64,000 nt of DNA from Candidatus Latescibacterota bacterium (GTDB lineage: Bacteria; Latescibacterota; UBA2968; UBA8231): positions 2,624,001-2,688,000 of the forward strand of contig CBDETK010000013.1 of the NCBI GenBank assembly GCA_965242865.1, written 5' to 3'. The notes beneath the pieces were generated by a model. That model made no database searches and had not been told where the DNA came from. It saw only the letters and a program-made list of their open reading frames with translations. Position 1 is the stretch's first letter; every line of letters begins with the position of its first letter. Positions 42,333 through 58,713 of this stretch are shown one piece after another. A program made the translations under genes and the position numbers.

Positions 42333-43027
42333 TGTCCCGCCCGCTCATCGGCATCACCAGCAGCCTAAACGCCAGCGGCGAGCAAACCCTCGACGCCCAC
42401 TACGTAGAAGCGGTCGCGCAGGCGGGCGGCGCACCGCTCGTGCTGCCGATGAGCGCAGACTGCACCGCGCTGCAAGCCGTACTAGAGCGCATTGACGGGC
42501 TGTTGATCACCGGCGGCCCGGGCATTGAGCGCGGCCTGATCGGCACCCTGCCCAGCGATCTGCCGCCGGTTGCGGCCCAGCGCGACCGAGCGGACCGCTG
42601 GAGCTTTGCGACCGCGCAAGCGCGTCGGTTGCCGGTTTTGGGCATCTGCTATGGAATGCAGTTTATCAGTGCCGAGTTGGGTGGCACGATTTGGGCGGAC
42701 GTGGAAGCCCAGCTCGGGGTTGAGCCGCATGGGCGACCGCGAACGGCGGGCGAGCGCATTGAGCACGATCTCCAAGTCGAGCCGGGCACGGTGCTGGCCG
42801 CGCTGAGCCATGCTGGGGCGTCGCGGGTCAATTCCAATCACGTGCAGGCCATTGACCGGCCCGGCGCGGGCTTGGCGATCAGCGGGCGCAGCGCCGATGG
42901 CGTCGTGGAGGCGGTTGAGAGCGCGGATGGGCGTTTAATCGGCGTACAGTTTCACCCGGAGCTCATGCTTGGGACGATCTGGTCTAAGCTATTCGACCAC
43001 TTGGTGAGCCGAGCGAGGCGATGCTGA
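42332..43027 (+). CDS. peptidase C26 / gamma-glutamyl-GABA hydrolase family
   Basis: RPLIGIT, DGLLITGG, LGICYGMQ, VNSNH.QAI, GVQFHPE; TGATG coupling. Confidence 0.92.
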   Translation: MSRPLIGITSSLNASGEQTLDAHYVEAVAQAGGAPLVLPMSADCTALQAVLERIDGLLITGGPGIERGLIGTLPSDLPPVAAQRDRADRWSFATAQARRLPVLGICYGMQFISAELGGTIWADVEAQLGVEPHGRPRTAGERIEHDLQVEPGTVLAALSHAGASRVNSNHVQAIDRPGAGLAISGRSADGVVEAVESADGRLIGVQFHPELMLGTIWSKLFDHLVSRARRC

Positions 43028-43508: not shown

Positions 43509-43600
43509 AGTTGGGTGTTGAGTTTTGGCGCGGCGGCTGAGGTGCTGGAGCCGGAGGCATTGTGGGCGGCGGTGCGGGCGGTGCGAGGGTTGTATGACGA
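43509..43600 (+). pseudogene. C-terminal fragment of a WYL/WCX regulator
   Basis: SWVLSFGAAAEVLEPEALWAAV matches the WCX-type W.LSFG..VEVLEP..LR tail. Confidence 0.6.
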
Positions 43601-43704
43601 GGGGCGACGTGATCTGTCTCAGATCATCGAATACGCGCAGACCGACCTACGGTCAGCAGCACCAAGTTACGCAAAGACAGAGCCGATCCAAGCGTCGCTG
43701 ACTC

Positions 43705-44940
43705 CTATGCTTCTATAAGCGTTTCCCCCCACGTTGCAAGGGGAGTAGCGAGCGCATCAATGATACATTTTTCAAGTTCTCCCCGCTTCTCCAAATCAAT
43801 CACTTTATCGCGACCCCATTCCCGAGAGACCGAGAATCCCGGGATGACATTGAGGCTCTGCCTCTTTGTCTTGTTAAACTCGGCTTCGATCTCTCTTCGA
43901 CCTTCAGAACTAATAAGGCGATCGTGTTCCCATTGCTTGGCCAAGCACAACAGTTCATCCCGACACTTTTTGCCATACAAAGACCCATCTGAAAAGCGGT
44001 CCAAATATTCACGAGTTTCCAAATCCGTTTCGGCCCAGATCAAGCCCTTGCTCATAAAGGAGAAACGGAGATTGGGTTTGACCTCCCACTCTTTCAAGGC
44101 GAGAAAGGCTTCCTTGTCGACAGCTTCGTAAAAACGGCGGGCTTGCCAGACGGTATCTGCTGGATACAGCTTTACTTGGAGTTTCCAAGGCTTCGACTCG
44201 GAGATCAAAATGAAGACCATTTGAGCAATTTTATCCGGCCGGAATAAGAAGTCCCTATCCTCCAAATCTGTCTTACTTGCTAAAGTAGCCAATAGAGAGG
44301 CACAGCGTCTTTCTAGTGCTTCAGGTCTGTCACCGCAGAGTTCGAAGGTGCGATAGGGAGTCAACTCAGGATGGACTTTCTCCACGAACGACAGGAAATC
44401 ACTAGCGATCTCGCGGCTGCTGAAATGCGCGATGCCTGACTCGGCGTACTTGAGCACACCTTCCAGAATTTCTGACCACTCCAAGCATATCGCCGAATGA
44501 TGTAGCGTGTTATCGTCAATGTCACCCGAGAATGACTTTTTGCTCGGCGACAACTGCTCCTCCCATACGGCACCATGATGGAGTTTGTTTTCGATAATCA
44601 AGGTCATGCAGTTTGGGTACTCAATTATGCCATCATACCTAGGATTACGACCTGACCATTCGACCCTTATTTTTTTTTGAATAGGCGCATCGGTAAGGAG
44701 GATGGAAACAAGAGGAGTAGTGGACGATTCAATCCACTCGGTCTGCGTTGAGACATTCGCCGGCTCCCAAGTATTGACGTGCGTCCGAAGCTTGGGAGGT
44801 AGCCGCGATTCCACCAGTTCACGCAGGAAGTTCTGTAGGGATGGATCGTATTTAAGAGCTACGAGAAACGCCCAAGTCAAGCGATCTTCATGATGCCTAT
44901 ACCGAGAATCAAAGGGGTTAAACAGATTTGAGCGGTTCAT
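43705..44940 (-). CDS. PD-(D/E)XK nuclease-like protein
   Basis: HEDRLT helix, YDGII....LIIENKL....EEQL; AAGGAG RBS. Confidence 0.7.
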   Translation of the reverse strand: MNRSNLFNPFDSRYRHHEDRLTWAFLVALKYDPSLQNFLRELVESRLPPKLRTHVNTWEPANVSTQTEWIESSTTPLVSILLTDAPIQKKIRVEWSGRNPRYDGIIEYPNCMTLIIENKLHHGAVWEEQLSPSKKSFSGDIDDNTLHHSAICLEWSEILEGVLKYAESGIAHFSSREIASDFLSFVEKVHPELTPYRTFELCGDRPEALERRCASLLATLASKTDLEDRDFLFRPDKIAQMVFILISESKPWKLQVKLYPADTVWQARRFYEAVDKEAFLALKEWEVKPNLRFSFMSKGLIWAETDLETREYLDRFSDGSLYGKKCRDELLCLAKQWEHDRLISSEGRREIEAEFNKTKRQSLNVIPGFSVSREWGRDKVIDLEKRGELEKCIIDALATPLATWGETLIEA

Positions 44941-45195
44941 TTATTTTTGCTCCTTGTATTTGAGGATTCCACTTCTCGGACTACGATATTGCCAGCCTGT
45001 TCCGGCAAACCGGCGAATGCTTTTCCGAATATAGGTACAGGTCACTATCAGGAAAAGGCCTGAGGCTAGAACCTTTTTACAAAAAAATTCTCCCCTGCGA
45101 CGCGATCTCATAGCCGCCACAAGCCCCGGCTTCCAAGAGGCGGTTGTCAGTTCTCCTTTACACTAGCGGGCGCACCATCCACCACTCCAGCCGAA

Positions 45196-45725: not shown

Positions 45726-45769
45726 CTAAGCGGTCCAATAAATTAGAGGAACGCGACCACATCGAAAAA

Positions 45770-47140
45770 ATGGTCCAGGGCGCACTATCCACCGGCAAAC
45801 CGGGCGTAAACATCTTGGTGTACGGCCCGCCGGGAACCGGCAAGACCGAGTTTTGCAAGACGCTGGCCGCCCGGCTCGGGAAGAGGCTGTACAGCGTCGG
45901 CGAAGAAGATGGCAGCGGCGACGATCCCAGACGGAACGAGCGACTCCAAGAACTCCAGCTCGCCCAGCGTCTGCTAGCACCGGGCCGTGGGTCAATCCTG
46001 CTCTTCGACGAGATGGAGGACTTGCTCTCGAATCCGGACTCGGGCTGGATGCCGTTCTCGTCGCGTAGCTTTCCTCATCTTCGGGCCGGCGGCTCCAAAG
46101 TGTTCCTAAACCGGCTGCTCGAACGGACGCCCGTACCGACGCTGTGGACCTCCAACTCCGCCCGAGCAACCTGTCCCACCGTCCTGCGCCGCATGACCTT
46201 CGCCTTAGAGTTGCGTAAGCCGCCATCCCCAGTCCGGGCGCGTATCTGGCAACGGGAACTGGCCCGGCGCGATATCGAGGCGACCGAGCAGGATGCACGC
46301 TCCCTGGCCAAAGAGTTTGACGTAACGCCGGGCATAGCGTCTGGGGCCATCGCCGCGGCGAGCCTCTGCGGCGGCGACCTCACCGCAGTGCGCCTCGGCG
46401 TCCGCAGCCTGTCTCAAGTGATTGTCGGCGAGAAGCCCCCCGCAAATCAGGGGCCGCCCGATAGATTCGACCCCGTCCTAATCCGGGCCGACATCGACCC
46501 GGTAGAATTTGCGGGAAGCATTGTACAAAGCGGTGGCAAGCATTTTTCCCTCTGTCTGCAAGGGCCGCCCGGCACCGGCAAGAGCGCGTTCGTCCGCTAC
46601 CTAGCCGAACGCCTCGGCCTCCAAGTCTCCCAAAAGCGCGCCTCCGACCTAATGTCGATGTGGGTCGGCGAAACCGAAAAGCTAATCGCCGAAGCCTTTG
46701 CCGAAGCTCGCGCCGAAGGCTCCATTCTCGTCTTTGACGAGGCCGACTCCCTGCTCGCCGATCGCCAAGGTGCCGTGCGCTCTTGGGAAGTCAGCCGAGT
46801 CAACGAAATGCTGACTTGGATGGAGAGCCACCCCCTGCCGTTCGCCTGCACGACGAACTTTGGCGACAATCTCGACCCCGCCACCTTGCGCCGCTTCACC
46901 TTCAAGATCGCGCTCAACTACCTCACGCCCGACCAGTCGCAAGCGGCGTTCCGCACCTATTTCGCGCTCAACCCTCCGCCCGAAGTCGCCGACCTCACCA
47001 CCCTGACCCCCGGCGATTTCGCCGTAGTCCGCCGAAAGGCCGAAATCCTCGGCCACCTGCAAGACGCAAAGGCTCTCGCCGAATTGCTCCGCGCCGAGTG
47101 CGAAGCCAAGCCGAACCACACGCGCAAGATGGGCTTTTGA
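45770..47140 (+). CDS. tandem AAA+ ATPase (SpoVK/Cdc48-like), probably 5'-truncated
   Basis: GPPGTGKT/LLFDEMED and GPPGTGKS/LVFDEADS, LRRF, C-terminal KMGF; Walker A only about 18 aa from the start. Confidence 0.8.
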   Translation: MVQGALSTGKPGVNILVYGPPGTGKTEFCKTLAARLGKRLYSVGEEDGSGDDPRRNERLQELQLAQRLLAPGRGSILLFDEMEDLLSNPDSGWMPFSSRSFPHLRAGGSKVFLNRLLERTPVPTLWTSNSARATCPTVLRRMTFALELRKPPSPVRARIWQRELARRDIEATEQDARSLAKEFDVTPGIASGAIAAASLCGGDLTAVRLGVRSLSQVIVGEKPPANQGPPDRFDPVLIRADIDPVEFAGSIVQSGGKHFSLCLQGPPGTGKSAFVRYLAERLGLQVSQKRASDLMSMWVGETEKLIAEAFAEARAEGSILVFDEADSLLADRQGAVRSWEVSRVNEMLTWMESHPLPFACTTNFGDNLDPATLRRFTFKIALNYLTPDQSQAAFRTYFALNPPPEVADLTTLTPGDFAVVRRKAEILGHLQDAKALAELLRAECEAKPNHTRKMGF

Positions 47141-47197
47141 TTAGGTTCTCGTTTTTGACAAGTCGATTACCACTGAATAAATTCTCCCGCCCGTCGC

Positions 47198-47251
47198 ATG
47201 ACGACCATCCCTAATCTGTGCGGATTCGCAACAAAAGAACTCGCACGCTAA
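47198..47251 (+). pseudogene. 17-codon remnant of the 5' end of a paralogue of the next gene
   Basis: MTTIPNLCGFATKELAR* versus MTLPNLYEFATKELAQD at 47269. Confidence 0.8.
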
Positions 47252-47268
47252 ACAAGGAGCACAGCAAA

Positions 47269-48354
47269 ATGACACTGCCCAATCTGTACGAATTCGCAAC
47301 AAAGGAACTCGCACAGGATGCTACCATTGCTTACCTCTTGGCGTGGGCCGACCCGGCATACCGCGAATCACATCCGCGCCTCCACACCCTTGGCACCGAA
47401 TTATTGCGTTCGCTCCTTCAGACGAAAGAAGAGGTTCTTCCACCGATCGAAACACTTTGTATCAAGACCCAGGTTTACCGGATTGACATTGTCGTGAAGA
47501 TCAACGCCGGCGAGAATGGAGTCCTCCTGATCATCGAAGACAAGGTGAGTGCCCGAGAGGGGCCGAACCAAATTGAAGGGTATAAAGAGGCCGCCAAGAA
47601 GAAGTACAGCGGCCAGTATGGTTGTGGTCGTTTGGTTGCGGTATATCTCAAGACGGGAAACGAATCGAAGGCCAGCCTTCCAGACGTAAAAAAATGCGGC
47701 CGCTTTATGCGCCGCGACCTGCTAGATGTCCTGAACAAATTTCAGGACACGGGAAATACCATAGTGGAAGACTTTCGCATCCATCTTCAAAATTGGGAGG
47801 ACGATACGAACAGGTGGGAATCCGCGAGTTACAAGGAGTGGGAGTGGAGACAATGGGAGGGCTTCTATGCCGAGTTGGAACACAGGTGGGACGGTTGTTG
47901 TGGTTGGGGTTATATTGCAAATCCGGCTGGAGGATTCCTTGGCTGTTGGTTGGGCTTCAAGAACATCGGAACCGAGGATCCGTACTCTCGCCTATATATA
48001 CAGATTCACAAGGATATACAGAAGGATATACAGATTTACAAGGAAACGCGTTTGACCGTCCGGCTTGGATCCGGTAAGGCCATGGACAAAGTTCGTGCCC
48101 CGTTCATGCACAAAGTTTTCAATGCCTTGAAAGAAGAGGCTTTTGACGGCATCCGCATCGAAAAGGCGGGGAAGTTCAGGGGCGGCGGTGCTGCAGCGGT
48201 TGCAGTCGTCACGTTTGATGAACAAGTACCTTGGCTTGCCGTTGACTCCAACGGCGTCGTGAATATGGACGCCACGATCGAACGGCTGCGTCGCTTGGAG
48301 GAACTGCTGGAAAAAGTTGCGACGCGCTTAACCGAACAGGGGATCGCCAGTTAG
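47269..48354 (+). CDS. PD-(D/E)XK nuclease family protein (PDDEXK_4-like)
   Basis: NLYEFATKELAQDA, RIDIVV....LIIEDKV....NQI..Y, VYLKTG; AAGGAG RBS. Confidence 0.85.
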   Translation: MTLPNLYEFATKELAQDATIAYLLAWADPAYRESHPRLHTLGTELLRSLLQTKEEVLPPIETLCIKTQVYRIDIVVKINAGENGVLLIIEDKVSAREGPNQIEGYKEAAKKKYSGQYGCGRLVAVYLKTGNESKASLPDVKKCGRFMRRDLLDVLNKFQDTGNTIVEDFRIHLQNWEDDTNRWESASYKEWEWRQWEGFYAELEHRWDGCCGWGYIANPAGGFLGCWLGFKNIGTEDPYSRLYIQIHKDIQKDIQIYKETRLTVRLGSGKAMDKVRAPFMHKVFNALKEEAFDGIRIEKAGKFRGGGAAAVAVVTFDEQVPWLAVDSNGVVNMDATIERLRRLEELLEKVATRLTEQGIAS

Positions 48355-48378
48355 TTGCGCGAGCATTCGCAATATTGA

Positions 48379-48705
48379 CTATGCCCGCAGCAAATGCCGC
48401 TGTAGCAAGGTCTGCATGTCGCGTCGCCCATCGGCGATCAAGAGCACATAGACCTCATTTCCCATCACCCGATAAATGATGCGGTAGGGCCTGAAGAATA
48501 TCTCCCGGTACTCCCGAATTCCAACGTCCAGCAGTTCCGTCGGATAGCTCCCGCGCTCGGGATACTCGGATAGGCTGCTGAACGCCTTCTCAATCTGCTT
48601 CAGTACACAATCCGCTCGGCCCGGCCCATCCTGCCTATCGCTGTAATCGCAGATAGTCTCCAAGTCGTGCGCCGAGTCGTCGGTCAACTGAACCAAGAAC
48701 ACCAT
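48379..48705 (-). CDS. RelE/ParE family toxin
   Basis: V.LTDDSAHDLETICDY, LSEYPERG..P.EL, YREI..RPYRIIYRV, IADGRRD. Confidence 0.88.
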   Translation of the reverse strand: MVFLVQLTDDSAHDLETICDYSDRQDGPGRADCVLKQIEKAFSSLSEYPERGSYPTELLDVGIREYREIFFRPYRIIYRVMGNEVYVLLIADGRRDMQTLLQRHLLRA

Positions 48706-48811
48706 CAGCGACCTTGGTGCCGCTCCCGCAGCCGTGCGACGACATCGGCGGCCGGTTGCACCTGACCTGCTTCGATCTGACGGCTACCCAGCGCGAGGAT
48801 CTTGAGCAACG
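48705..48811 (-). pseudogene. Phd/YefM antitoxin, C-terminal fragment only
   Basis: LLKILALGSRQIEAGQVQPAADVVARLRERHQGR* with TGATG coupling to the toxin; N-terminus missing. Confidence 0.7.
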
Positions 48812-48979
48812 TACCTGATCTGGCACTTCGCGAAGTGCTATCGTAGTTTAGGATTTCAAGAAATTGGCAAAGGAACGACAGTTGCCGGTTGTTGTTGGAG
48901 AAGATGGCGCGGCTTTAAGAGAAATACGAGGCCGAGCGGATTCGCTCGACAGCCGAACGAATCAAGGGAGAATTTTGCA

Positions 48980-50356
48980 ATGGACGAAATAAGGGAATTG
49001 ATTTTGGAGGATGTGCGCTGTTTCCAAGGCACACAGCGCGGTCGCTTGCGGCCTATTACGCTGCTCGTGGGTGAGAACAGTACGGGAAAGACTACCTTTC
49101 TAAGCTGTTACAGGATATTACACCGGGTGCTTTCTCGGCAGGAGGGCAACATTGACGAGCAGTTGGACTTCAACGAGGATCCCTTTTCTATGGGCTCGTT
49201 CCACGACATCGTTCGGTTGCGGCGCGGTCCAAGCGGTCGTATCGACGAGTTCAAACTCGGTTTTACGATTGCGCCTCACAACGGTGTGTCGCCGTATGAA
49301 ACATCCATCGCCGTCTCGGAAAAAAATTCGCAACCTGCTGTCTCCTCCTTGCGCTATCAGTTCAACTCCGACTCCTTTCTGGCATTGCGACGAGTTGACT
49401 CCGGCGAAACCATTCTTTCCATCCCGCATCACGAGGAGAAGATCAACTTCTCATTTGAGGAAGTGGTGTTCATGCTCGATAGGCTGACCTCTGGATATCC
49501 AAAACAGCATCCTTACTATCTCCACTACCTTCGCCTGTTTCCGAACATGCGACCAATCGTCGAGTACCTCGAAACGTTGTTCTCCAACCGCAAAACTGGT
49601 AAGGCCGGACGCACGAAGCGGCGGGGTTATGGTTTCAGGTTTCTGAGCACCACCGATGTAATTCCAATCGCGCCGCTTCGCTCCAAACCCAAGCGCACCT
49701 ACGATCCGGTACGCGAGACCGCCTCGCCTGAAGGCGAACACATCCCCATGTTAATGATGAGGCTCGACCGCACCGACAAGAACCACTGGAACTCGCTTCG
49801 CGATAGCCTCCTGCAATTTGGTCATGGCTCCGGATTGTTTGCGGACATCAAAGTAAAGCGTCATGGCAAGCTGATGAGCGATCCGTTCCAGTTGCAGGTA
49901 AAAGTTCGATCAGGACCGCATGCGAACATCATGGATGTGGGCTACGGTGTCAGCCAGAGCCTGCCAATCCTAGTCGACGTGCTAGCTGCGGAGTCGGGAT
50001 TGCGCCGACAGGGCGGAGGCGAACGGACGTTCTTGCTACAGCAACCAGAGGTCCATCTTCATCCCCGGGGGCAGGCGGCACTAGCCAGTCTGCTAGTGGA
50101 GTCCTTTGAGAAACGCGGAAACCGATTCTTGATCGAGACCCACAGCGACTACATTGTAGATCGCGTTCGCATCTCCGTCAGAAAACGGATTTTGAAGCCC
50201 GAGGACGTTTCCATCCTGTACTTCGAGCCAAAAGGAAACGCCGTTGTGATTCACAATGTGACCTTGGACAAATACGGCAATCTACAGGACGCGCCCGATG
50301 GATACCGGGACTTCTTCTTAAAGGAAACCGACCAGCTACTTGGTTTCGCGGATTGA
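48980..50356 (+). CDS. ABC-type (AAA_15/AAA_21) ATPase, same family as 523-1917
   Basis: GENSTGKT, DVGYGVSQSLP, LLQQPEVHLHP, IETHSD, DKYGNL..APDGY..FF. Confidence 0.88.
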   Translation: MDEIRELILEDVRCFQGTQRGRLRPITLLVGENSTGKTTFLSCYRILHRVLSRQEGNIDEQLDFNEDPFSMGSFHDIVRLRRGPSGRIDEFKLGFTIAPHNGVSPYETSIAVSEKNSQPAVSSLRYQFNSDSFLALRRVDSGETILSIPHHEEKINFSFEEVVFMLDRLTSGYPKQHPYYLHYLRLFPNMRPIVEYLETLFSNRKTGKAGRTKRRGYGFRFLSTTDVIPIAPLRSKPKRTYDPVRETASPEGEHIPMLMMRLDRTDKNHWNSLRDSLLQFGHGSGLFADIKVKRHGKLMSDPFQLQVKVRSGPHANIMDVGYGVSQSLPILVDVLAAESGLRRQGGGERTFLLQQPEVHLHPRGQAALASLLVESFEKRGNRFLIETHSDYIVDRVRISVRKRILKPEDVSILYFEPKGNAVVIHNVTLDKYGNLQDAPDGYRDFFLKETDQLLGFAD

Positions 50357-50365
50357 GCCGGCCTC

Positions 50366-50681
50366 ATGTGCATCATCATAGACGAGAACAAGCTCGGTTC
50401 GTTTCTCGCCGATCCACCGGACGCGGATTCCGCGCCGGTCCGCAAGTGGCTAGACAAAGGTGGTATCCTCGTGTATTCAACGGGGAGCATTTTCGCCGAA
50501 GAAGTTAGAGGCCGGGCAAAGAGAACGCGGTGCCCGCCTGCTCTATACAGGGGACAACGATCTCATAGCGGACTTCAAGAACAAGCAGTTCATAGATAAA
50601 CCAAGAGGCAAAGTCTATTCCGGCTCGGCCAATGCCAACTTACTTACCAAATCGGCCTGCGAGGGGCGAGGAATGCAGTAG
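50366..50681 (+). pseudogene. PIN-like protein with internal deletion/frameshift near 50520
   Basis: MCIIIDEN..EVRGRAK in one frame, then ERGARLLYTGDNDLIADFKN.. in another; central D.H region absent. Confidence 0.65.
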
Positions 50682-50759
50682 CCTCAGAAAGGACCTTATG
50701 CCCGCAGTAAGCGTCGCAACAGCAAGGTCTCCCGAAAGCCAGGCGAGAGCAGTTCTTGC

Positions 50760-50844
50760 TGTAATTTTGAACCGCTACTTCAAATTATCGTGTAATTTTG
50801 AACCGCTACTTCAAATTTACACGTTAATTTTAAGTCCATGTACA
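50760..50844 (+). repeat. orphan copy of the DUF4143 gene leader (two palindromes + ATGTACA)
   Basis: 85-bp match to 56801-56885 with about 4 substitutions. Confidence 0.95.
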
Positions 50845-50886
50845 TATCCTCGCCTAAGATGCTGATCGGAGCGGATTATTCAAACG

Positions 50887-50990
50887 CTAAGTCGCCGCTT
50901 CCGACGAAGCCTCAATGCGTCCGGCGATCCACTCTTGAAGCAGCTTCACATCAGAGATACCACGCGACTTGGCAAGTTCCTTTGAGGGGG
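50887..50990 (-). pseudogene. CopG/RHH antitoxin-like C-terminal fragment
   Basis: KELAKSRGISDVKLLQEWIAGRI*-type tail. Confidence 0.4.
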
Positions 50991-51110
50991 CCGCCCTGAC
51001 CTTAGTTGATTTTGCCGTAGTCCGCCGAAAAGCCGAAATCTTCGGCCACCTACAAGACTCGTCAAATTGCTGTGCGCCGAGTGTGCAACCAAGCCGAACC
51101 ACTCGCACGA
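50991..51110 (+). repeat. degenerate copy of the 3' end of the tandem AAA+ gene (46998-47127)
   Basis: GATTTyGCCGTAGTCCGCCGAAArGCCGAAATCyTCGGCCACCTrCAAGAC..CCAAGCCGAACCAC shared, with a 9-bp deletion. Confidence 0.9.
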
Positions 51111-51118
51111 CCCGTTGC

Positions 51119-53278
51119 TCAGAGAATGGGGGACTCTGATTGTTTTAGCAATCCGTCAATCTGCTCGCGGTCCTTGAGTTCCTCGCTAGGTGTGTAGCCG
51201 GGCCATAGCTGTCTGTAGAGCGACGCGACGTAATCCTCGGTCTCCAAGGGCAACTTTCGCTTGCTAGCTACTAAGGCGAACAACTTCAATTCCAAAATTT
51301 TGTAGACACGGTCATGTTCTTTCAGCGACAACGCGGAGATCGCTATCGCGGTCTGCTCTGCTTCATCGATTGCGTCTAACAAGAGCCATAGCTGACCCCA
51401 AAACCGCAACGTTTTAAGGTCGAATTGCCCTCCATCGCCAAAACGCTCCGAGGCGGCGTGGATGAATTCTGTGGTGATCATCTCGTCGTAGTGTGCATCC
51501 GTCCCACCTTCGCGAGAACTCTTGAGACTTCGCTGCTCAAGCAGAGCCCATAAGGCAAGAGGCTCGACTCCTAAGTGCCGTACTCGATCCAGTAGCCATG
51601 CGTCGTTTGGCTCGCCAAACTCGATGACAAAGCGGGCCGCAAGCTCCGATGCGACCGAGGCTGCGGGATGGCTAGGAAGGTGTTGTCCGGCGAAATGGCA
51701 GTGGTCCCACAGGATCTCGGCGAGAGTGCGGACCGATACAGGATTGATCGTGTGGCCGAGTTCGTTTATTACTGGGATTGCGTGGAGTGCGACCAAGAAC
51801 CAATGTTGCGCTGCTCGGTCAGCATAGATGAACGCTTCATAATTATCCTCAGTATCCCATACACTCAGCGGCAACTCCCGGCACTGAGCCGAGACCCACT
51901 CCGGCAAATCAAGCTCCTCGTGAGACAGCACAAGGGCTATGCCGAGACTGCTGAACCACTCGCGTTGGTGCCAGGCACGCCAGTCCAAAAATAGATGATT
52001 CTGTTCCAACTGCTTGGCAATGTGCTGACCGTGCAAGTCGAAAGCCACTTGGGCGATCTCAGCGGCCCTCGCAGAATCGTCTTCGCGGATCAACCAAGCA
52101 ACATCCGCAATGTGACGGGTCCAAGTCGTTCGAGGAGTCAGGCATAGGCCAGCCCTAAGTTCGTCAAGCAGATTGTCGGACCATGACTGGCAAACGAGGC
52201 GTGAGAGTAGTTCCGTACATGCCCTCTCAAGTTGTTCAATCCGGGGCGGCTTCTCATGGCTCCCGCGTTGATTCAGCCCGTAAGGGGCATTGCTGAGCAC
52301 CTCGCCGACCCAGCGTACGCACACAAGAGGATCAAGCACGGCTAGCCGATCAACTAAGTCTTTAAGGAGAGCGGCAGCGGCGGCATCAAGGTCATCCTGA
52401 GGAAGGCAGAGTTCGGTTCTCCAGCTATATCGATCTATACCCATACCCATTTCACCCATTCGATCTGAGTATCGAAGGTCTTCGTCCAACTTATTGACGG
52501 TGTTCAGCGTATGTACGATCGCAAGCGCAACCAAGGCATCGCATGAATCCTTAGTGATCCACTCTAGGGTCTGACGATGGTTCAAGGAAAGGTCCGCGGC
52601 GGTCATGCGGTTGGCCGCCCGTGCCTGAATCACCGGATGATCGAGCTCCTCAATCAGGGTTTCAAAATGCTTGGGCCGCAACTTGATGACGAGTTCGAGC
52701 AGATTGCCCACGGCAGGATAGATCTCTAGAAAGCCATGGTTGTCTAGGTGCTGAAAAGTTTCTAGCCTTCCTTCGCGCTTTATAGAATCTTTCAGGATTT
52801 TAGCATTGACAGAATCTTGTGCAGTAAAGCCGGGGCAACGGGCCACATCGAGAATCTGGTCTTGATCGCAGAGCTTTTTCAACACCGTAAGTGTCGCCTC
52901 AACCAAAGAGTTAATCTCCTGAGAGGACCAGCGGCAACGAATGAGACGTACTGCTAGGTCAACGTCAATCGAGCCGACAGCCCAGATTGCAATCTTCCCG
53001 CGCTCGGTCCGGATCTCCTCTAGGATCAGGGCTGCAACTGGCTCGAACAATTCAGACTTGAGCAATGGTCGATCCCCATACGACTCAAACCAACCACGGA
53101 TCTCCGTGATGGCTCGATCCTGCTCTATAGAAGAAATAACATACTTTCTAGTGATTGGCTCGATCAGTTCGTAAGTCGACTGCCCCGTTAAGGGAGATTC
53201 ACCCGAGCCGAAGATCCGCCAAATAACGGCTTTTGCGCTGTCAGGCAGGGAAATACTAGGTATGCTGTTGCTGACCAT
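51119..53278 (-). CDS. hypothetical 719-aa, likely alpha-helical protein
   Basis: Long ORF, TGATG-coupled to the upstream HTH-PLD gene; no motif recognised. Confidence 0.8.
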   Translation of the reverse strand: MVSNSIPSISLPDSAKAVIWRIFGSGESPLTGQSTYELIEPITRKYVISSIEQDRAITEIRGWFESYGDRPLLKSELFEPVAALILEEIRTERGKIAIWAVGSIDVDLAVRLIRCRWSSQEINSLVEATLTVLKKLCDQDQILDVARCPGFTAQDSVNAKILKDSIKREGRLETFQHLDNHGFLEIYPAVGNLLELVIKLRPKHFETLIEELDHPVIQARAANRMTAADLSLNHRQTLEWITKDSCDALVALAIVHTLNTVNKLDEDLRYSDRMGEMGMGIDRYSWRTELCLPQDDLDAAAAALLKDLVDRLAVLDPLVCVRWVGEVLSNAPYGLNQRGSHEKPPRIEQLERACTELLSRLVCQSWSDNLLDELRAGLCLTPRTTWTRHIADVAWLIREDDSARAAEIAQVAFDLHGQHIAKQLEQNHLFLDWRAWHQREWFSSLGIALVLSHEELDLPEWVSAQCRELPLSVWDTEDNYEAFIYADRAAQHWFLVALHAIPVINELGHTINPVSVRTLAEILWDHCHFAGQHLPSHPAASVASELAARFVIEFGEPNDAWLLDRVRHLGVEPLALWALLEQRSLKSSREGGTDAHYDEMITTEFIHAASERFGDGGQFDLKTLRFWGQLWLLLDAIDEAEQTAIAISALSLKEHDRVYKILELKLFALVASKRKLPLETEDYVASLYRQLWPGYTPSEELKDREQIDGLLKQSESPIL

Positions 53279-54987
53279 CAGGCGATCTCCTTAACAAAAC
53301 AGTTTGTGTTCTTGGATCCGATGACCATTGACCACAGCGACTCCGCCTCGGCGCGATACACACCGTAGGGGTGGCTAGAAAAGGTAACCCCCTCCTTATG
53401 CCAACCATTAAAGGAATGGGTGATGACGATCTCGCGTTTGGGCATTATCAAGTAACGATCGTGAAACCCAGGACCTTCCGAATTCTGTTCGAGGAACACG
53501 CGAATATTAACATGACTCGTTAGTTGGTCGGGGAGATTCGACCACCATGTACTCCACCATGTGACTTTCGCCTCTTTCGCGCATAGGATTCGCAACGGCC
53601 TGCCATTGGTGGCTTCGAATATATTAAGGTATAGCTTCTTAAGATTGTCTCTCTCCGGTTTGGGTATGTCCATGAAGTAGGGGTCGGCAAGATAAATCGG
53701 TGCCGTTTGATCGGCATCTTGACGCAGAAGATAGGTAAAGTGCTGGATAGCCCGCTCGAATTCCACGGGTCTAAAACGCACGAGATTACCCTCTCGGCGT
53801 GCGATATTCTCCCGCTCGTAAACCTGACGATCAAGCCATTGTCGTCGGATTCCTCTGTCGAGTTCGGCACTGTCTTGGTCAGTTTGGACGTTGATTGTGG
53901 AGACGAAACCTGATGGATTGACCTCGTGGGTGAAGCTGCTTTTGCGTTCGCGGAGCTGCAGCGTTGGGCCGGACTTGATCTCCATGCGAATACCGACCTC
54001 CATGAGCAGAAACGCCTCCATCAAGTCGACACACTGTCCGTCAGCAGTCCGGAGAATCTCAAAGCCGATGTGATCAACATCCGATGCAAACTCAATCACC
54101 TTCTGGCCTAGAGTGACCGGAACTTCTCGTCGTAGCACCCGATCTCCACTGTGGCTAGCCCAGACCGTGGCTCGGTAGGCCCCGGACAGCAGTTCGTTCG
54201 CATCTACATGAAGCCTCAGCGTCCGGTTGCGATTCGCTGACAGATCACAAACAATTGCATCTTGGGCGGCGGCGATCATGAAGTTTCCAACCCGGTCTGG
54301 ACGGCGGTTGAGTGGGAAGCCCAGACGTGCGAGTTGAGGTAAGGCTTTGTTCTGAAGTGATTCAAGGATCTCCAGCCAGCGTTTGCGAGGCTCCACCGTG
54401 AAGCTCCAGTACTCGATTATCTCCGCACTGTGTCTTGAGAAGGGGCTACGCATTGAAGCATCGGCGAGCGGGCGGTCATCTCGATAAGCCCAGTGGCGGC
54501 GAGGGATGGGTTCCAAGGCATATTGAATTTCAAGGTCATCAATCCCCAGCGTACCCGAATCCAAGATTTGACCAACCAATGTGTAGCAGCATTCCCACGA
54601 CGCTTCTAAGGAAAACAGTCGGAGTTCATGTCCAAGGTCGATACTCGACCAAGTCTCGTCCGGTTCGCCAGCCCAAGGCCCTAGCGCATCCTGACGTCGG
54701 TGGCGTATGAGCGTGAACAAGTTGCGAAGCGGTGCGCTCGGCGAATGCCACGCCAATACCGTCATCCGAGCGGTTCGGCTCTCCATAGCCCCCGTCGTCA
54801 CCGGGGCGCGAGCCGGTAAATTGAAGGAAAGCCCGCGCTCGTGCGCCCAACGCATTGCTTCGTCAAGTGACACGGACACATTGCGCCCTTCCCTTCGCAC
54901 GGCCAAGTGCCCTCGATGAATGTGTTGGCGAATGTAGGTCTCGCTCTTATCCACGGAACGGGCTAACTCTGCAATCGTAATATACAT
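53278..54987 (-). CDS. N-terminal HTH + C-terminal PLD-like nuclease domain protein (VPA1262-like)
   Basis: MYITIAELARSVDKSETYIRQHIHRGHL (excisionase-type HTH); IYLADPYF..FHDRYLI..ITHSFNG. Confidence 0.7.
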   Translation of the reverse strand: MYITIAELARSVDKSETYIRQHIHRGHLAVRREGRNVSVSLDEAMRWAHERGLSFNLPARAPVTTGAMESRTARMTVLAWHSPSAPLRNLFTLIRHRRQDALGPWAGEPDETWSSIDLGHELRLFSLEASWECCYTLVGQILDSGTLGIDDLEIQYALEPIPRRHWAYRDDRPLADASMRSPFSRHSAEIIEYWSFTVEPRKRWLEILESLQNKALPQLARLGFPLNRRPDRVGNFMIAAAQDAIVCDLSANRNRTLRLHVDANELLSGAYRATVWASHSGDRVLRREVPVTLGQKVIEFASDVDHIGFEILRTADGQCVDLMEAFLLMEVGIRMEIKSGPTLQLRERKSSFTHEVNPSGFVSTINVQTDQDSAELDRGIRRQWLDRQVYERENIARREGNLVRFRPVEFERAIQHFTYLLRQDADQTAPIYLADPYFMDIPKPERDNLKKLYLNIFEATNGRPLRILCAKEAKVTWWSTWWSNLPDQLTSHVNIRVFLEQNSEGPGFHDRYLIMPKREIVITHSFNGWHKEGVTFSSHPYGVYRAEAESLWSMVIGSKNTNCFVKEIA

Positions 54988-55015
54988 ATAGGCATCTCTC
55001 TGATAAGCGACAAGT

Positions 55016-55058
55016 GTAATTTACTAATGTAAATTACGATGTAACTACAATCTGTCAA
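55016..55058 (-). promoter_or_regulatory. sigma70-like promoter with overlapping inverted-repeat operator
   Basis: Minus strand TTGACA(55058-55053)-16 nt-TAATTT; perfect IR GTAATTTAC-TAAT-GTAAATTAC at 55016-55037. Confidence 0.6.
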
Positions 55059-55192
55059 GTCCCCAGTAGCCGAACGTGAATCGGGGCTTGCCGGTCTGGC
55101 CTGCTCGACGCGGATTGCCCCCACATAGTGTCGTCCGTCTTTCCTCACCAGCGGCCCAACCGATGATTTCCTCTTGATCATTAGCCAAAATC

Positions 55193-55205
55193 AGACATAT
55201 TGTCT
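55193..55205. promoter_or_regulatory. short inverted repeat upstream of abiEi
   Basis: AGACA-TAT-TGTCT; AbiEi proteins are known to autoregulate through promoter IRs. Confidence 0.35.
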
Positions 55206-55230
55206 CTATATGAAATTAAATGGAGTCAAT

Positions 55231-55836
55231 ATGTCTAGATCTAAGAAAAAACGTCCTGAAGAAATCTTCCGCAGGTACGGCGGCCAACTTCGGATGAGCG
55301 AGGCCATCGCACACGGGATTACACGCTACATGCTATATGCGCTCAAAGACAGGGGCGTCATCGAGCCGGTCAGCAGAGGCATCTATCGATTGCGGGAACT
55401 ACCTCCGCTCGGCAACCCTGATCTGGTCGCGGTGAGCCTTCGCTTCCCCAACGCCGTCGTTTGCCTCGTCTCTGCGCTGGCTCACCATAGCATCACGACT
55501 CAGATTCCCCATGAGATTTCTGTGGCGGTGCCAAGAGACTCGCGGGTTCCGTCACTCGACTATCCTCCCATCCGAGCCCACAGATTCTCGCAGGCAGCAT
55601 ACAAGTCCGGCATCGAAACGCCCCTAATTGATGGTGTGCCCGTTAAAATCTACCGTTGCGAGAAAACCCTAGCCGACTGCTTCAAGTTTCGCAACAAAAT
55701 TGGTATGGATGTGGCGCTAGAAGCGTTGAAGCTCCACCAGACGCGAAACGGGTTCAATCTCGGCGAACTGCTCAAATACGCCAGAATTTGTCGGGTAGAA
55801 AAGGTGATGTGGCCCTATTTAGAGGCACTGGTATGA
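55231..55836 (+). CDS. abiEi: type IV TA antitoxin AbiEi
   Basis: N-terminal wHTH (RGIYRL), VCLVSALAHH.ITTQIP, EKTLADCFKFRNKIG. Confidence 0.9.
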   Translation: MSRSKKKRPEEIFRRYGGQLRMSEAIAHGITRYMLYALKDRGVIEPVSRGIYRLRELPPLGNPDLVAVSLRFPNAVVCLVSALAHHSITTQIPHEISVAVPRDSRVPSLDYPPIRAHRFSQAAYKSGIETPLIDGVPVKIYRCEKTLADCFKFRNKIGMDVALEALKLHQTRNGFNLGELLKYARICRVEKVMWPYLEALV

Positions 55837-56735
55837 CGTCTCCTCGCAATGCGTCCGCGTCTGTCCGGCAACGCCTCCTCAATCGGGCCAGAAGTGAACG
55901 ACGGCCATTTAACGAAATGCTTCAATACTTCGCCATGGAGCGATTCCTCTACCGGCTATCCCAATCCGCTCATGCCCATCGATTTGTGCTCAAGGGCGCG
56001 TTGATGCTGAGGGTTTGGGACTCACCGGAATTCCGTCCGACCATGGACATCGACTTACTTGGCAGGACTCGCAACGAAGAAGCCGATATCGTCTCTCAGA
56101 TGCGGGACATCCTAATGGTCAATGTGGAAACGGACGGACTTGCGTTCGATCCGGATTCTATCCACACCGAGCGGATCACCGAAGGCGCGGATTACGACGG
56201 GATCAGAATTCGGTTCCTAGGCGTATTGGGATCCGCGATAATTCACATGCAGATCGACATTGGCTTCGGTGATGTCGTGTATCCCGAACCGAAAGAGTTG
56301 GATTTTCCGACCATATTGAACTTCTCGGCACCGCGATTGTTCTGTTACAGCCGCGAGAGTTCCATCTCGGAGAAGGTCGAAGCCATGGTCAAGCTAGGTA
56401 TGCTAAACAGCCGGATGAAGGATTTCTACGACATCTGGTTGCTGTCTCGGCAGTTCGACTTTGAGGGCCCCAAGTTGGTCCAAGCCATTCGGCGGACCTT
56501 TGAACGGCGAAGCACGGTGCTACCCGCGGAAATCGAGGCATTCTCTCAGTCTTTCATCGATGCCAAGCAGAGCCAATGGGCGGCGTTCCACAACAGGCTC
56601 CAGCAGGATCACGTGCCTGCCTCGTTCGGAGAAATTACGGCTTCGGTGAGTGGATTTCTGCGGCCCGTTGTCGCGGCTCTTTCCTCCGGGAACTCTAGGC
56701 CGACCGACTGGATCGCACCCGGCCCATGGACCTGA
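55833..56735 (+). CDS. abiEii: type IV TA nucleotidyltransferase toxin AbiEii
   Basis: ERFLYRLS, FVLKGA, RPTMDIDL, IDIGFGD, EKVEAM, SRMKDFYD; ATGA overlap. Confidence 0.92.
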   Translation: MTSPRNASASVRQRLLNRARSERRPFNEMLQYFAMERFLYRLSQSAHAHRFVLKGALMLRVWDSPEFRPTMDIDLLGRTRNEEADIVSQMRDILMVNVETDGLAFDPDSIHTERITEGADYDGIRIRFLGVLGSAIIHMQIDIGFGDVVYPEPKELDFPTILNFSAPRLFCYSRESSISEKVEAMVKLGMLNSRMKDFYDIWLLSRQFDFEGPKLVQAIRRTFERRSTVLPAEIEAFSQSFIDAKQSQWAAFHNRLQQDHVPASFGEITASVSGFLRPVVAALSSGNSRPTDWIAPGPWT

Positions 56736-56770
56736 GCCGGTATCCTTCCACCAAAGCAAGAAGACGTGTA

Positions 56771-56798
56771 CGTCGGATAGCTCCCGCGCTCGGGATAC
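56771..56798. repeat. 28-bp exact copy of an internal part of the relE/parE gene (48538-48565)
   Basis: CGTCGGATAGCTCCCGCGCTCGGGATAC at both positions. Confidence 0.92.
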
Positions 56799-56800
56799 GT

Positions 56801-56862
56801 TGTAATTTTGAACCGTTACTTCAAATTATCATGTAATTTTGAATCGCTATTTCAAATTTACA
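56801..56862. promoter_or_regulatory. two tandem 31-bp palindromes upstream of the DUF4143 ATPase
   Basis: TGTAATTTTGAA-N7-TTCAAATTATCA and TGTAATTTTGAA-N7-TTCAAATTTACA. Confidence 0.7.
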
Positions 56863-56878
56863 CGTTAATTTTAAGTCC

Positions 56879-58033
56879 ATGTACAAACGATCGCTGGACC
56901 TCCCCGCGTCCGGCACCGAGACGTTTTTCCTCTGGGGGCCGCGACAGGCGGGCAAAAGCACCCTGCTAAAACACCAGTACGCCGACGGCCTGTGGCTCGA
57001 TCTCCTAAAGGCCGACGAGTTCAGACGGTACGTCGCCAACCCAGAGTTTTTGCGTCAAGAAATCGAGGCGACCGGGTTCGACGCCAGTCGCCAGATCGTC
57101 ATTGACGAGATTCAGAAAGTACCGGCCCTGCTCGACGAGGTGCATTGGCTGCTCGAAAACCGAGGGTTGAGCTTCGCCCTTTGCGGCTCCAGTGCCCGCA
57201 AGGTGCGGCGCGGAGGGGCCAACCTGCTCGGCGGGCGAGCCGTGCGCTATCAACTGCACGGGCTGACGGCGCGGGAACTCGGCTCAGACTTTGACCTCAC
57301 CCGGCTCCTCAACCACGGCTACCTGCCCCGGATGTACGCCAACGCCCGTCCCGCCCGGTTGCTCGACGCGTATGTCGCCGACTATCTCAAGGAGGAAATC
57401 GCGGCCGAAGGACTGGTCCGCAACTTGCCCGCGTTTGCCGGGTTTTTGAACGCGGCCGCTCTAGGCGATACCGAAATGGTCAACTTCTCCAATATCGCAC
57501 GGGAGTGCGGCGTCTCCAGTCACACGGCGAGAGGCTACTACGAGATTCTCGAAGACGCGCTGCTCGGACGCTGGTTGCCCGCCTTCCGCCGGCGTCCCAA
57601 GCGGCGAGTGGTTGCCGCGCCTAAGTTCTACTTTGCGGATGTCGGAGTGGTCAACCGCCTCGCCCGCCGAGGGCAACTGCTGGTAGGGTCGGCTCTATAC
57701 GGCAAGGCATTTGAGAACTGGGTGTTCCACGAGTTGGCCGCGTTTGCCGACTATCAAGCATTCGATGGCGATCTAACGTATTGGCGTCTAGCCGGCGGGA
57801 CCGAGGTTGATTTCATCTTGGGCGACATGCAGCTAGCGGTTGAAGCCAAGGCGAGCAATCCCATCGTCAGCAACCACTTGAAAGGGCTGCGTAGCCTAGT
57901 GAAGGATCATCCGGGCGTCGGCCGGCGAGTTGTCGCGTGCCTTGAACCCCGCGCCCGGCGCACTGACGACGGGATCGACATCCTGCCCGCAGCCACCTTC
58001 GTCCAAATGCTCTGGCGCGGCGACCTCGCCTAA
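56879..58033 (+). CDS. AAA_14 ATPase with DUF4143 (wHTH and PD-(D/E)XK-like tail)
   Basis: GPRQAGKS, IDEIQKVP, LCGSS, KFYFADVG, AFENWV, EVDFIL..AVEAK. Confidence 0.92.
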   Translation: MYKRSLDLPASGTETFFLWGPRQAGKSTLLKHQYADGLWLDLLKADEFRRYVANPEFLRQEIEATGFDASRQIVIDEIQKVPALLDEVHWLLENRGLSFALCGSSARKVRRGGANLLGGRAVRYQLHGLTARELGSDFDLTRLLNHGYLPRMYANARPARLLDAYVADYLKEEIAAEGLVRNLPAFAGFLNAAALGDTEMVNFSNIARECGVSSHTARGYYEILEDALLGRWLPAFRRRPKRRVVAAPKFYFADVGVVNRLARRGQLLVGSALYGKAFENWVFHELAAFADYQAFDGDLTYWRLAGGTEVDFILGDMQLAVEAKASNPIVSNHLKGLRSLVKDHPGVGRRVVACLEPRARRTDDGIDILPAATFVQMLWRGDLA

Positions 58034-58713
58034 GCTCGCCGCTTCCATACATCCGCGGCTTGCTGGCTCTCCACTTGCACGAGCCGCGCTTCTTCAAGCA
58101 CATAACCGCTGAGGGGGCCGCCGTAGATGCAGCCCGAGTCGAGGCCGAGGAGATAGGGGCGGCCCGCGCGCTTTTTAAGCACCAAGCCGCCGGGCGCGTC
58201 ATGGCCAAAGACGAGCAGGGGATGCGTCGGCTCGTAGAAATCGTGCCACCGCGGGCCGGAAAGATCGCGGGTGGGCGGCCAAGTGCGGATTTTCAGGAAT
58301 TCGGCGCGGCGAGTGCCTCGCAAGTCCTTTTGCGGGTGGATGCCCGCGTGGACGAGGAGAAAGGCGTCTTCCGCGATGTAGAGCGGGCACTGCCGGAGCC
58401 AAGCGAGAATTTCGCCGTGGACGGGCTGGAGCTGGGCGCGGGTATAGCCTTGATCGGCAAACTTCTCTTTGGGCTTGCGGCCCTTGGCCTGAGCGGTTAG
58501 CTGCTTCAAGAGACGGGCGTCGTGATTGCCCAACACCATCTCGGCCCCGGTATCGCGGATCAACTGCCACACCGCTAGCGGGTCGGGGCCGCGAGAAAAA
58601 GCATCGCCGGTCAGCAACAGGCGATCCCGGGCCGCGTCGTAGTCTGCTTTTGCCAGCAGGGCTGCAAGCTCGGCCGCGCAGCCGTGGATGTCGCCGACGA
58701 AAATAGTACGCAT
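58030..58713 (-). CDS. metallophosphoesterase (ApaH/PPP-like)
   Basis: GDIHG, GDAFSRG, GNHD, VHAG, FGH, LDSGC.YGG.L. Confidence 0.92.
   Translation of the reverse strand: MRTIFVGDIHGCAAELAALLAKADYDAARDRLLLTGDAFSRGPDPLAVWQLIRDTGAEMVLGNHDARLLKQLTAQAKGRKPKEKFADQGYTRAQLQPVHGEILAWLRQCPLYIAEDAFLLVHAGIHPQKDLRGTRRAEFLKIRTWPPTRDLSGPRWHDFYEPTHPLLVFGHDAPGGLVLKKRAGRPYLLGLDSGCIYGGPLSGYVLEEARLVQVESQQAADVWKRRA

Follow-up and report, generated by a model that had tools for sequence, protein, structure and literature searches.

A defense island in the genome of an uncultured bacterium, Candidatus Latescibacterota (assembly GCA_965242865.1), carries two sets of cargo genes placed head to tail, and the boundary between the sets consists of stubs of genes that normally bound a set: the leader of a DUF4143 ATPase gene, a CopG antitoxin gene, and the 3′ end of an AAA ATPase gene. 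The island lies in a 64,000-nucleotide (nt) stretch of contig CBDETK010000013.1, referred to here as the window; coordinates are counted from its first letter. The upstream set, version 1, includes genes for a PD-(D/E)XK nuclease-family protein, a relBE toxin-antitoxin pair, and an ABC-type ATPase. The downstream set, version 2, includes genes for proteins of 719 and 569 amino acids (aa), an AbiE pair, and an intact DUF4143 gene. We think it probable that cargo was added here by homologous crossover within the AAA gene combined with an illegitimate join, so that older cargo was displaced and redundant anchor genes decayed. The initial annotation had described two versions of one defense locus in tandem and read them as allelic cassette exchange at fixed slots. 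The tandem itself holds up, with stubs at the boundary between the two cargo sets and support from independently assembled contigs. “Allelic exchange” is too tidy a description, as version 1 is composite and largely decayed.

The island (43015-58016, 15.0 kb) is bracketed by two conserved genes. We compared this 15-kb query with 40 relatives and then with all 31 genomes of the genus, and fetched the loci of 23 relatives; the “24 loci” below are these 23 and the window, and relatives’ genomes and loci are given G and L numbers. Homology to relatives on the left stops at 43015 (12 relatives’ loci), and the right flank begins at ~58016 with a metallophosphoesterase gene, homology starting at 58011-58030 in genomes without DUF4143. 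Both flanks are visible in 15 of the 24 loci, the window counted; in the other 9, the left flank lies outside the stretch or contig or is different (in G019, rpsD-rpoA-rplQ lie leftward). The content between the flanks differs genome by genome, and in the 15 same-genus loci its size ranges from 1.3 kb (G009, which holds only C and DUF4143) to 20.1 kb (G011). No Pfam match to an integrase, transposase, or recombinase family was found among 17 window open reading frames (ORFs) and 88 representatives of the relatives’ clusters of ORFs of at least 70 aa. There are no tRNA genes in the window, and a tRNA-targeted element was rejected for this reason. PADLOC matches point to a homology-based enrichment of defense genes (AbiE, IetA-like AAA, NsnB-like ATPase, PDC-S01, PDC-S26), and the relatives’ islands hold CAP12/Pycsar-type TIR, WYL regulator, ADP-ribosylglycohydrolase (ARH), REase-ARP, and HigBA genes. 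Judged by its sequence, the locus is a variable defense hotspot without an integrase between two conserved genes.

Three pairs of short repeats connect the two versions. Self-comparison of window positions 44000-60000 (BLAST and ungapped blocks) recovered all three pairs reported in the initial annotation, in the colinear order A, B, C′ / A′, B′, C. Repeat A, the 3′ end of the AAA gene, aligns with A′ at 77.8% identity over 126 columns (E 3e-24); with gaps disallowed, the match splits into a 68-nt block (85%) and a 49-nt block (84%), which a 10-nt indel shifts relative to each other. Repeat B, inside relE (48538-48565), is identical to B′ at 28/28 positions, a perfect match too long to be due to chance. 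C′ and C are 95.3% identical over 85 nt (E 2e-33), or 91% over 94 nt ungapped, and only 2 nt separate B′ from C. Within the 5,997,474-base assembly (13 contigs), each element matches just its own two places, all else having E values of at least 0.05; A, B, and C are therefore not dispersed repeats, and that reading, which the initial annotation had named as one that would undo its interpretation, was rejected. The identities of the pairs are unequal, at 78 to 85% for A/A′, 91 to 95% for C/C′, and 100% for B/B′, which indicates that B′ differs in age from the other two.

The anatomy of the C′/A′ junction shows what the repeats are remnants of. The start of the second DUF4143 gene (DUF4143′), ATGTACA, runs straight into CCTCGCCTAAG and then into the linker GATGCT...GGATT, which also stands behind 49-nt DUF4143 3′ stubs in G014 and G008. 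Because a gene start is joined to a gene end that is followed by this shared linker, C′ belongs to a second DUF4143 gene from which ~1.14 kb has been lost internally. The CopG stub that follows has 93% aa identity to the G014 protein over residues 58-84, and ~8 nt of unmatched filler separates it from A′. By tblastn, A′ is equivalent to residues 647-670 of the G014 AAA protein, and it reaches the stop of the convergent 719-aa gene. G014 has a DUF4143 stub of 49 nt followed by complete CopG and AAA genes, the latter of 691 aa; the order in G044 is CopG, a small gene (c11), and AAA.

We considered whether three unrelated repeats could have come to lie in this order by coincidence, with A′ hitch-hiking with the 719/569 pair, C′ arising by local duplication, and B′ serving as a repair patch. 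Three ordered pairs can be interleaved in 90 ways, of which we calculate that 6 are tandem-colinear, and the chance of such an order is accordingly 6 in 90. The three pairs are also of different age, A′ accompanies the 719/569 pair elsewhere without C′, C is duplicated alone in G046, and B′ is lineage-specific. Against this, C′, the DUF4143′ end, the CopG stub, and A′ adjoin one another in the order of the intact genes in G014, and in 12 of the 13 loci that hold both genes, a copy of relBE is found on the right-hand side of an AAA copy. We regard coincidence as quite improbable.

Because the genome was assembled from a metagenome, with an estimated contamination of 6.8%, and because related strains coexist in such samples, the junction could in principle join the haplotypes of two strains. 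We therefore turned to Logan contigs, which were built without reference to this assembly; some runs that contain the stretch bear a sponge metagenome label. Record 16 of X7 (9,528 nt) covers 44000-52666 with 0 differences and bridges the junction. Contigs of X8 cover 44000-50839 and 50815-56880 (record 28), also with 0 differences, and break only inside the C repeats. Record 4 of X1, from another study, covers 50953-51583 with 4 differences and spans the CopG/A′ joint, and X1 further spans 51629-55531 with 14 differences. X7 and X8 may derive from the source study, in which case they represent independent assembly, and X1 represents independent data. Record 3 of X1 ends 30 nt past the C′/DUF4143′ joint, where 31 were required, and was not counted as bridging; X10 provided short pieces only, none listed across the junction. 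Contigs from two studies thus bridge the A′ junction, which moreover consists of decayed stubs and contains no switch inside shared sequence, and we see next to no chance that it was created by the assembly. Short high-depth contigs joining 46336 to 57651 were set aside as conserved P-loop motifs of other organisms. One further joint in X1 leads from 50982 to 57993, with 30 nt on one side and the letters between not known; it might point to a haplotype in which version 2 is missing, or else to an unrelated arrangement.

Orphan 3′ ends of the AAA gene are widespread among the relatives. Nine such pieces besides A′ occur in eight genomes (G001, G003, G005 [two], G010, G019, G022, G023, and G046), and truncated AAA genes end in the same stretch in G043 and G044. 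The left ends of the stubs mostly fall at 46933-47070 of a gene of ~2.08 kb, in at least six contexts, with four at 46990-47006 (stubs in L011, L013, L015, L017, L023, L024, L025, L038, L039, and L040). What lies to the left varies (the relBE upstream region, a DnaB-paralogue gene end, unrelated sequence, or CopG), and no shared motif was seen on the non-AAA side of these junctions in the stub alignment. In all four same-genus genomes with the 719/569 pair, an AAA stub abuts the 719 stop codon: the window retains 46998-47123, and the other three retain 46933-47043 and 22 nt of filler. These two forms imply that a longer AAA gene, probably a complete one, once stood convergent with the 719-aa gene and gave rise to both. 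G019 reads full AAA, relBE, stub, 719, 569, and G001 reads full AAA, ARH, PD-(D/E)XK, outer membrane protein (OMP), DnaB paralogue, stub, relBE; a pattern of anchor, presumably newer cargo, stub, and presumably older cargo therefore recurs.

The AAA gene thus behaves as an anchor whose neighborhood changes: across the 24 loci it is followed by at least seven different neighbors (ARH, REase-ARP, OMP-DnaB, relBE, ABC ATPase, PD-(D/E)XK, and C/right flank). It is itself mosaic, in that its closest relative shifts along the gene (G011 at 45820-46100; G042/G014 at 46570-46750). The X1 strain diverges unevenly from the window, by 3.0% in AAA (59/1968) versus 0.36% in the 719/569 genes (14/3903), which apparently shows recombination in the anchor region. 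The window copy is 5′-truncated, with 456 aa against ~690 aa in relatives, whose homology always starts at 45745/6. This truncation is seen in the window genome only, where ~230 N-terminal codons and the upstream small gene c11 are gone; c11 is retained in G044, G046, and others.

Genomes that carry one version alone do exist among the relatives. G022 has a relBE-like pair, A′, 719, 569, AbiE, C, DUF4143, and the right flank, without the AAA gene, PD-(D/E)XK, or the ABC ATPase. G044 has an internally deleted AAA gene, the ABC ATPase, a PD-(D/E)XK_4 gene, relBE, C, and a damaged DUF4143. The genome closest by flank identity, G046 (92%), carries contiguous PD-(D/E)XK and relBE genes (89%), a one-unit C′, AbiE, a two-unit C, and DUF4143. 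The best matches of the window’s segments lie in different genomes (PD-(D/E)XK and relBE in G046, 89%; the ABC ATPase in G044, 85%; 719/569 in G019, 90%; AbiE to right flank in G046, 92%), and the island is accordingly a mosaic. The slots, which the initial annotation had taken to be fixed, are not: the ABC-ATPase cargo stands to the right of relBE here and to the left in G044, and AbiE has at least five different neighborhoods, following a TIR gene (G020), the left flank (G011, G045), relBE (G010), the 569-aa gene (window, G003, G022), or C′ (G046). What recurs across the genus are the anchors, namely, the two-domain AAA ATPase, relBE, and leader C with the DUF4143 ATPase, and the neighboring cargo turns over. 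Stacking is common in the genus, with two AAA copies in G010 and G011, two relBE copies in G003 and G014, and two C elements in G046. In G011 (L018 and L019), two long tandem units (AbiE remnant, WYL, cargo, c11, AAA, cargo) differ in cargo, and in G010 (L017) both AAA genes are full.

The two versions are in different condition: version 1 is mostly debris around three intact genes, and version 2 is intact. The RelE/ParE toxin has 85% aa identity to the G019 copy over 108/108 residues, but its antitoxin is reduced to the last 47 of 134 codons, and the pair is therefore not intact. DNA homology of relBE ends at 48809-48817, and the break in the antitoxin gene coincides with the left border of the ABC-ATPase segment. 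A homologue of this ATPase occurs in G044 only among the 31 genus genomes (85% DNA and 79% aa identity). The initial annotation had placed a PIN gene downstream; this region has no family match up to an E value of 5 and consists of two short ORFs in different frames, probably a broken gene, in which the X1 strain has an 11-nt deletion at 50412. A match between 48380-48413 and 50697-50730 was weak (E 0.2) and was taken at first as chance. Relatives match the same relE end consistently, with G019 (82% over 45 nt, E 1e-6) and G001 (E 4e-5) best, and on this ground we accepted the match as a third relE-derived piece, a 3′ remnant. The other labels, AAA, PD-(D/E)XK, ParE/RelE, ABC-type ATPase, AbiE, and DUF4143, were all borne out by Pfam or other family matches.

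Repeat B′ tells a separate story. The B 28-mer is identical only to relE of the window genome and of G019; the G046 copy has 1 mismatch, and 17 others have 2 to 5. At the AbiE/C junction of G022 there is a 13-nt linker, CGGATATCATTGC, with a counterpart between AbiE and the WYL gene in G010, G011, and G020, and G046 has unrelated sequence at this junction. In the window the relE tract stands in place of the linker, and CGGATA is common to both. The X1 strain (~97 to 99.6% identical) joins 56770 directly to 57245, a joint that leaves out B′, C, and 366 nt from the start of DUF4143. The absence of B′ from G022, G046, and X1 indicates that it is young and lineage-specific, and it marks no slot boundary contemporary with A′ and C′. 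One option is a patch templated by microhomology; another is that B′ is all that is left of a relBE copy homogenized with the resident one. Bearing on the latter option, full relBE pairs directly follow AbiE in G003 and G045, and C′ too is preceded by a relE remnant.

The addition of cargo at the AAA gene would have proceeded as follows. An incoming segment would have comprised the 3′ part of AAA, PD-(D/E)XK, relBE, the ABC ATPase, C′, DUF4143′, and part of the CopG gene. Its left end would have entered by homologous recombination inside the resident AAA gene, and its right end, within CopG, would have been joined illegitimately to the resident gene at the equivalent of ~46998. The last ~120 nt of the resident gene (A′) and the older cargo (719, 569, AbiE, C, DUF4143) would thereby have been displaced downstream. 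Later decay would have removed the ~1.14 kb from DUF4143′ and eroded the antitoxin gene, the “PIN” region, and the 5′ end of AAA, and B′ would represent a separate, younger event at the AbiE/C junction. A crossover combined with an illegitimate join would be the most parsimonious history and would account for the truncated CopG gene, the retention of the 3′ end alone of AAA, the filler at the joint, and the divergence between A and A′. It would also explain part of the 3′ bias of the stub ends, since only positions downstream of the crossover are available for the join.

A history of whole units in tandem would likewise leave A, B, and C colinear. Here a complete unit (CopG-c11-AAA...relBE...C-DUF4143) would have been duplicated by unequal crossing-over or added whole, after which cargo was swapped and the inner anchors were deleted. 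The tandem units of G011 with their differing cargo, the two full AAA genes of G010, and the full CopG and full AAA behind a DUF4143 stub in G014 are in line with such a history. Nevertheless, we rate it as unlikely. The unequal identities of the three pairs do not fit a single age, the two halves have no cargo in common, and such a history would require at least three independent deletions whose ends chanced to fall within CopG and within the final 120 nt of AAA; eight other genomes retain this AAA end as well.

Several points weigh against the crossover-and-join history that we favor. A single genome does not reveal in what order the events took place, and two complete units followed by two deletions could give the same end state. 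The ABC-ATPase segment has its own relE remnant and C′, which makes version 1 a composite that needs more than one event. The 31 genus genomes yielded no donor that carries precisely the incoming segment. A′ is 76 to 81% identical to every AAA copy and the C elements are 88 to 97% identical, and no donor lineage could be assigned to A′ or C′, the pieces being too short and the identities too alike. To our knowledge, no natural transformation or other route of DNA uptake is known for this uncultured lineage. The defense roles of all the genes are predicted from homology. Finally, the clustering of stub ends is the sole observation not fully explained: a join downstream of the crossover accounts for it only partly, and a local hotspot or selection may contribute.

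That clustering led us to consider whether the last ~150 nt of AAA, and perhaps also the C leader, are dedicated capture points, such as a Chi-like hotspot or one targeted by a host protein. We find this highly doubtful. If true, capture points would account for the position of most stub left ends within ~140 nt of a 2.08-kb gene, and they would constitute a directional accretion device, integron-like but integrase-free, in which older cargo is kept behind an orphan stub.

A related possibility is that C, the AAA 3′ end, or both are attachment sites for a recombinase encoded elsewhere. Element C is built from two 31-nt units, in each of which imperfect inverted arms, TAATTTTGAA / TTCAAATTA, enclose 7 nt; the leader and start codon come after them. 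In the form of single-stranded DNA, C folds better than shuffled sequences do (z -2.95). It stands on both sides of AbiE in G046, its first 64 to 70 nt persist beside the right flank in seven genomes that lack DUF4143 (G010, G011, G012, G014, G023, G042, G045), it shares the 11-mer TGTAATYTTGA with the WYL-gene leader, and in several settings the borders of the AbiE module are the same. We nonetheless consider site-specific insertion very unlikely. The Pfam-scanned ORFs, 17 from the window and 88 from relatives, include no recombinase family; the left junctions of the stubs have no motif in common on the non-AAA side and differ in position by up to ~70 nt or more; the left borders of AbiE are of three kinds; the G046 duplication around C reaches 43 nt past the palindrome; and modules occur in both orientations. 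In addition, C occupies just the position expected of a DUF4143 promoter or operator, and on this basis it is a putative regulatory element of that gene. A scan for sigma-70 promoters in the C region gave one minus-strand consensus match only and was uninformative. A dif/Xer site was also considered for C and dropped, since the island (2.67 Mb, contig C13) is at neither extreme of the cumulative GC skew (0.92 and 3.68 Mb), whose curve is irregular. The 11-mer (56801-56811) and the preceding 13 nt also precede the WYL gene where WYL follows AbiE (L017:3052+, L018:4142+, and L027:4181+ in oriented coordinates), which suggests a common operator half-site or a recurrent crossover point.

We saw nothing at the locus that would call for a new mechanism, and the process is of a known kind. 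In type VI secretion system (T6SS) effector-immunity arrays of Vibrio cholerae, as portrayed in the portion of PMC5361080 on which we draw, new modules enter beside a conserved upstream anchor and push older ones downstream together with an anchor 3′ stub, and the mechanism proposed there is homology-facilitated illegitimate recombination, with one homologous and one illegitimate end (PMC5361080). Orphan modules of Rhs and contact-dependent inhibition (CDI) loci are described, in the part of PMC3150448 used here, as the same type of sequential displacement. Our locus shares with these arrays a conserved anchor with variable downstream neighbors and anchor 3′ stubs before displaced cargo. It differs in that the anchor is the AAA ATPase of a defense island and no toxin-delivery gene, the cargo comprises whole defense or toxin-antitoxin systems instead of effector-immunity pairs, there are several anchors (AAA, relBE, C-DUF4143, and WYL) and not one, and the retained items are complete systems and not immunity genes alone. 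Fixed core flanks with highly variable, defense-rich content and rapid turnover also characterize the core defense hotspots (cDHS) of Pseudomonas aeruginosa and chromosomal hotspots of horizontal gene transfer, as far as the portions of PMC10250203 and PMC5635113 consulted describe them; the taxon here, in contrast, belongs to an uncultured candidate phylum. Like integron cassette arrays, the island accumulates small, mostly promoterless or self-contained modules, toxin-antitoxin pairs included, in order at one site, but no integrase was found in the scanned ORFs, there is no attC-like border site, orientations are mixed, and break positions vary.

The ways in which integrase-free defense islands gain and keep their systems are usually deduced from tables of presence and absence. 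At this locus the scars can still be read: 3′ stubs of an anchor gene, a second DUF4143 gene emptied of its interior, and a disrupted antitoxin gene; 23 comparator loci from the same genus carry the pieces separately. The locus supports additive stacking by one-sided homologous recombination, this time in the anti-phage island of a sponge symbiont that has not been cultured; the process is the one proposed for Rhs, CDI, and T6SS arrays, and no new molecular mechanism is revealed.

Table 1. Features of the island and its flanks, in window coordinates
Feature	Position	Strand	Basis or remark
Conserved left-flank gene	41987..43027	+	83% aa identity to cluster c8 of G013
WYL/WCX regulator gene, 3′ stub, 114 nt	43509..43622	+	77-87% match to 3′ end of cluster c9
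411-aa gene, cluster c30	43705..44940	-	Members also in G008, G014, G019
AAA ATPase gene, IetA-like second AAA domain, 456 aa	45770..47140	+	Pfam AAA 5.7e-34; IetA 1e-26 (partial)
Repeat A, AAA gene 3′ end	46998..47123	+	Pairs with A′ 50991-51106
PD-(D/E)XK gene allele, duplicated 5′ stub (17 codons and stop)	47196..47246	+	51 nt, 80% to 47264-47314
PD-(D/E)XK nuclease-family gene, likely start ~47270	47218..48354	+	PDDEXK_4 3.8e-10; PDC-S26 2e-8
RelE/ParE toxin gene, intact, 108 aa, contains repeat B	48379..48705	-	ParE_toxin 1.2e-15
Phd/YefM antitoxin gene, 5′-truncated	48708..48848	-	Residues 88-134 of 134 align; c12 = PhdYeFM_antitox
ABC-type ATPase gene (AAA_15/AAA_21/DUF3696; NsnB-like)	48980..50356	+	NsnB 3.5e-46
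Two short ORFs, different frames (former “PIN”)	50366..50681	+	No family match
relE 3′-end remnant, third relE-derived piece	50686..50730	-	75-83% matches, always to the stop-proximal relE end
Repeat C′	50760..50844	+	Two 31-nt partly palindromic units, then leader and ATGTACA of second DUF4143 gene
DUF4143′ gene end (about 11-12 nt) and its own downstream linker	50845..50886	+	CCTCGCCTAAG = intact gene end 58024-58034
CopG-family antitoxin gene, 3′ stub, last ~32 codons	50887..50982	-	Full 88-aa genes in G014, G013; CopG_antitoxin 1e-8
Repeat A′, orphan 3′ stub of second AAA gene, ~40 codons	50991..51106	+	Abuts 719-aa gene stop
719-aa gene	51119..53278	-	Always paired with 569-aa gene (G019, G003, G022, distant L045)
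569-aa gene	53278..54987	-	Weak N-terminal HTH (HTH_17 E 0.019), C-terminal PLD-superfamily fold
AbiEi-AbiEii pair	55174..56735	+	AbiEi 2e-74, AbiEii 2.5e-99; module borders shared with relatives at 55164, ~56770
Repeat B′	56771..56798	.	28-nt tract identical to resident relE
Repeat C, operator-like leader of intact DUF4143 gene	56801..56885	+	Two 31-nt units
AAA_14 and DUF4143 ATPase gene (PADLOC PDC-S01)	56879..58033	+	PDC-S01 3.9e-49
Metallophosphoesterase gene, conserved right flank	58030..58713	-	Family match and flank homology

The 719/569 pair (51119-54987) is a candidate new defense system. Family searches gave no match for the 719-aa protein. The 569-aa protein had been labeled HTH-PLD; its helix-turn-helix (HTH) part stands weakly, and its phospholipase D (PLD) part is supported by fold, residues ~392-569 scoring Z 8.7 to 11.1 to 20 PLD-superfamily entries (Nuc, NucT, Zucchini, BfiI, SauUSI, and PLDs), with no match to Pfam PLD. 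The C-terminal domain alone of its AlphaFold model was used, because the model of the whole protein is poor (mean pLDDT 41.7, reaching 63 to 85 only for residues ~400-569); no fold was obtained for residues 21-402. The protein has an invariant F508-H509-D510-R511 motif. Set against the PLD motif HxK(x)4D, this reads H509-D-R511, with R for K and no D at +7. ESM Atlas matches for the two proteins scored 0.75 to 0.85 and serve as leads only. The pair also occurs in a metagenome-assembled genome of a distant Latescibacterota member (L045:4274-8112) at 52 to 54% aa identity, beside PDDEXK_4, DUF4411, and ImmA/IrrE genes.

Smaller traces of exchange were seen elsewhere in the island. The start of the PD-(D/E)XK gene is duplicated (47196-47314) with a spacing of 68 nt; the downstream copy starts the actual gene, and the upstream 51-nt copy is 94 to 95% identical to the single copies of G001 and G046. 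This duplication has the look of a recombination scar. At their 3′ ends, the CopG stub (50887-50902) and the metallophosphoesterase gene (58030-58046) share 16/17 nt (CTAAG(C)TCGCCGCTTCC), and the CopG genes of G014 and G013 end differently; the shared ends may reflect conversion between two DUF4143 downstream regions.

At the left end of the island, the stub belongs to a regulator (c9) with HTH_11, WYL, and WCX domains that is ~325 aa at full length in relatives; PADLOC matched WYL at 8e-5 on the ORF at 43473-43718. Family searches with the adjacent 411-aa gene were without a match. Relatives’ islands often hold a gene for a DnaB-helicase paralogue, in many cases with an OMP beta-barrel gene (L011, L012, L017, L018, L021, L022, L027, L039, and others), and G010 carries two copies of the paralogue. 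The window genome has a single dnaB gene, 358 kb distant, which is 56 to 70% identical to the island copies.

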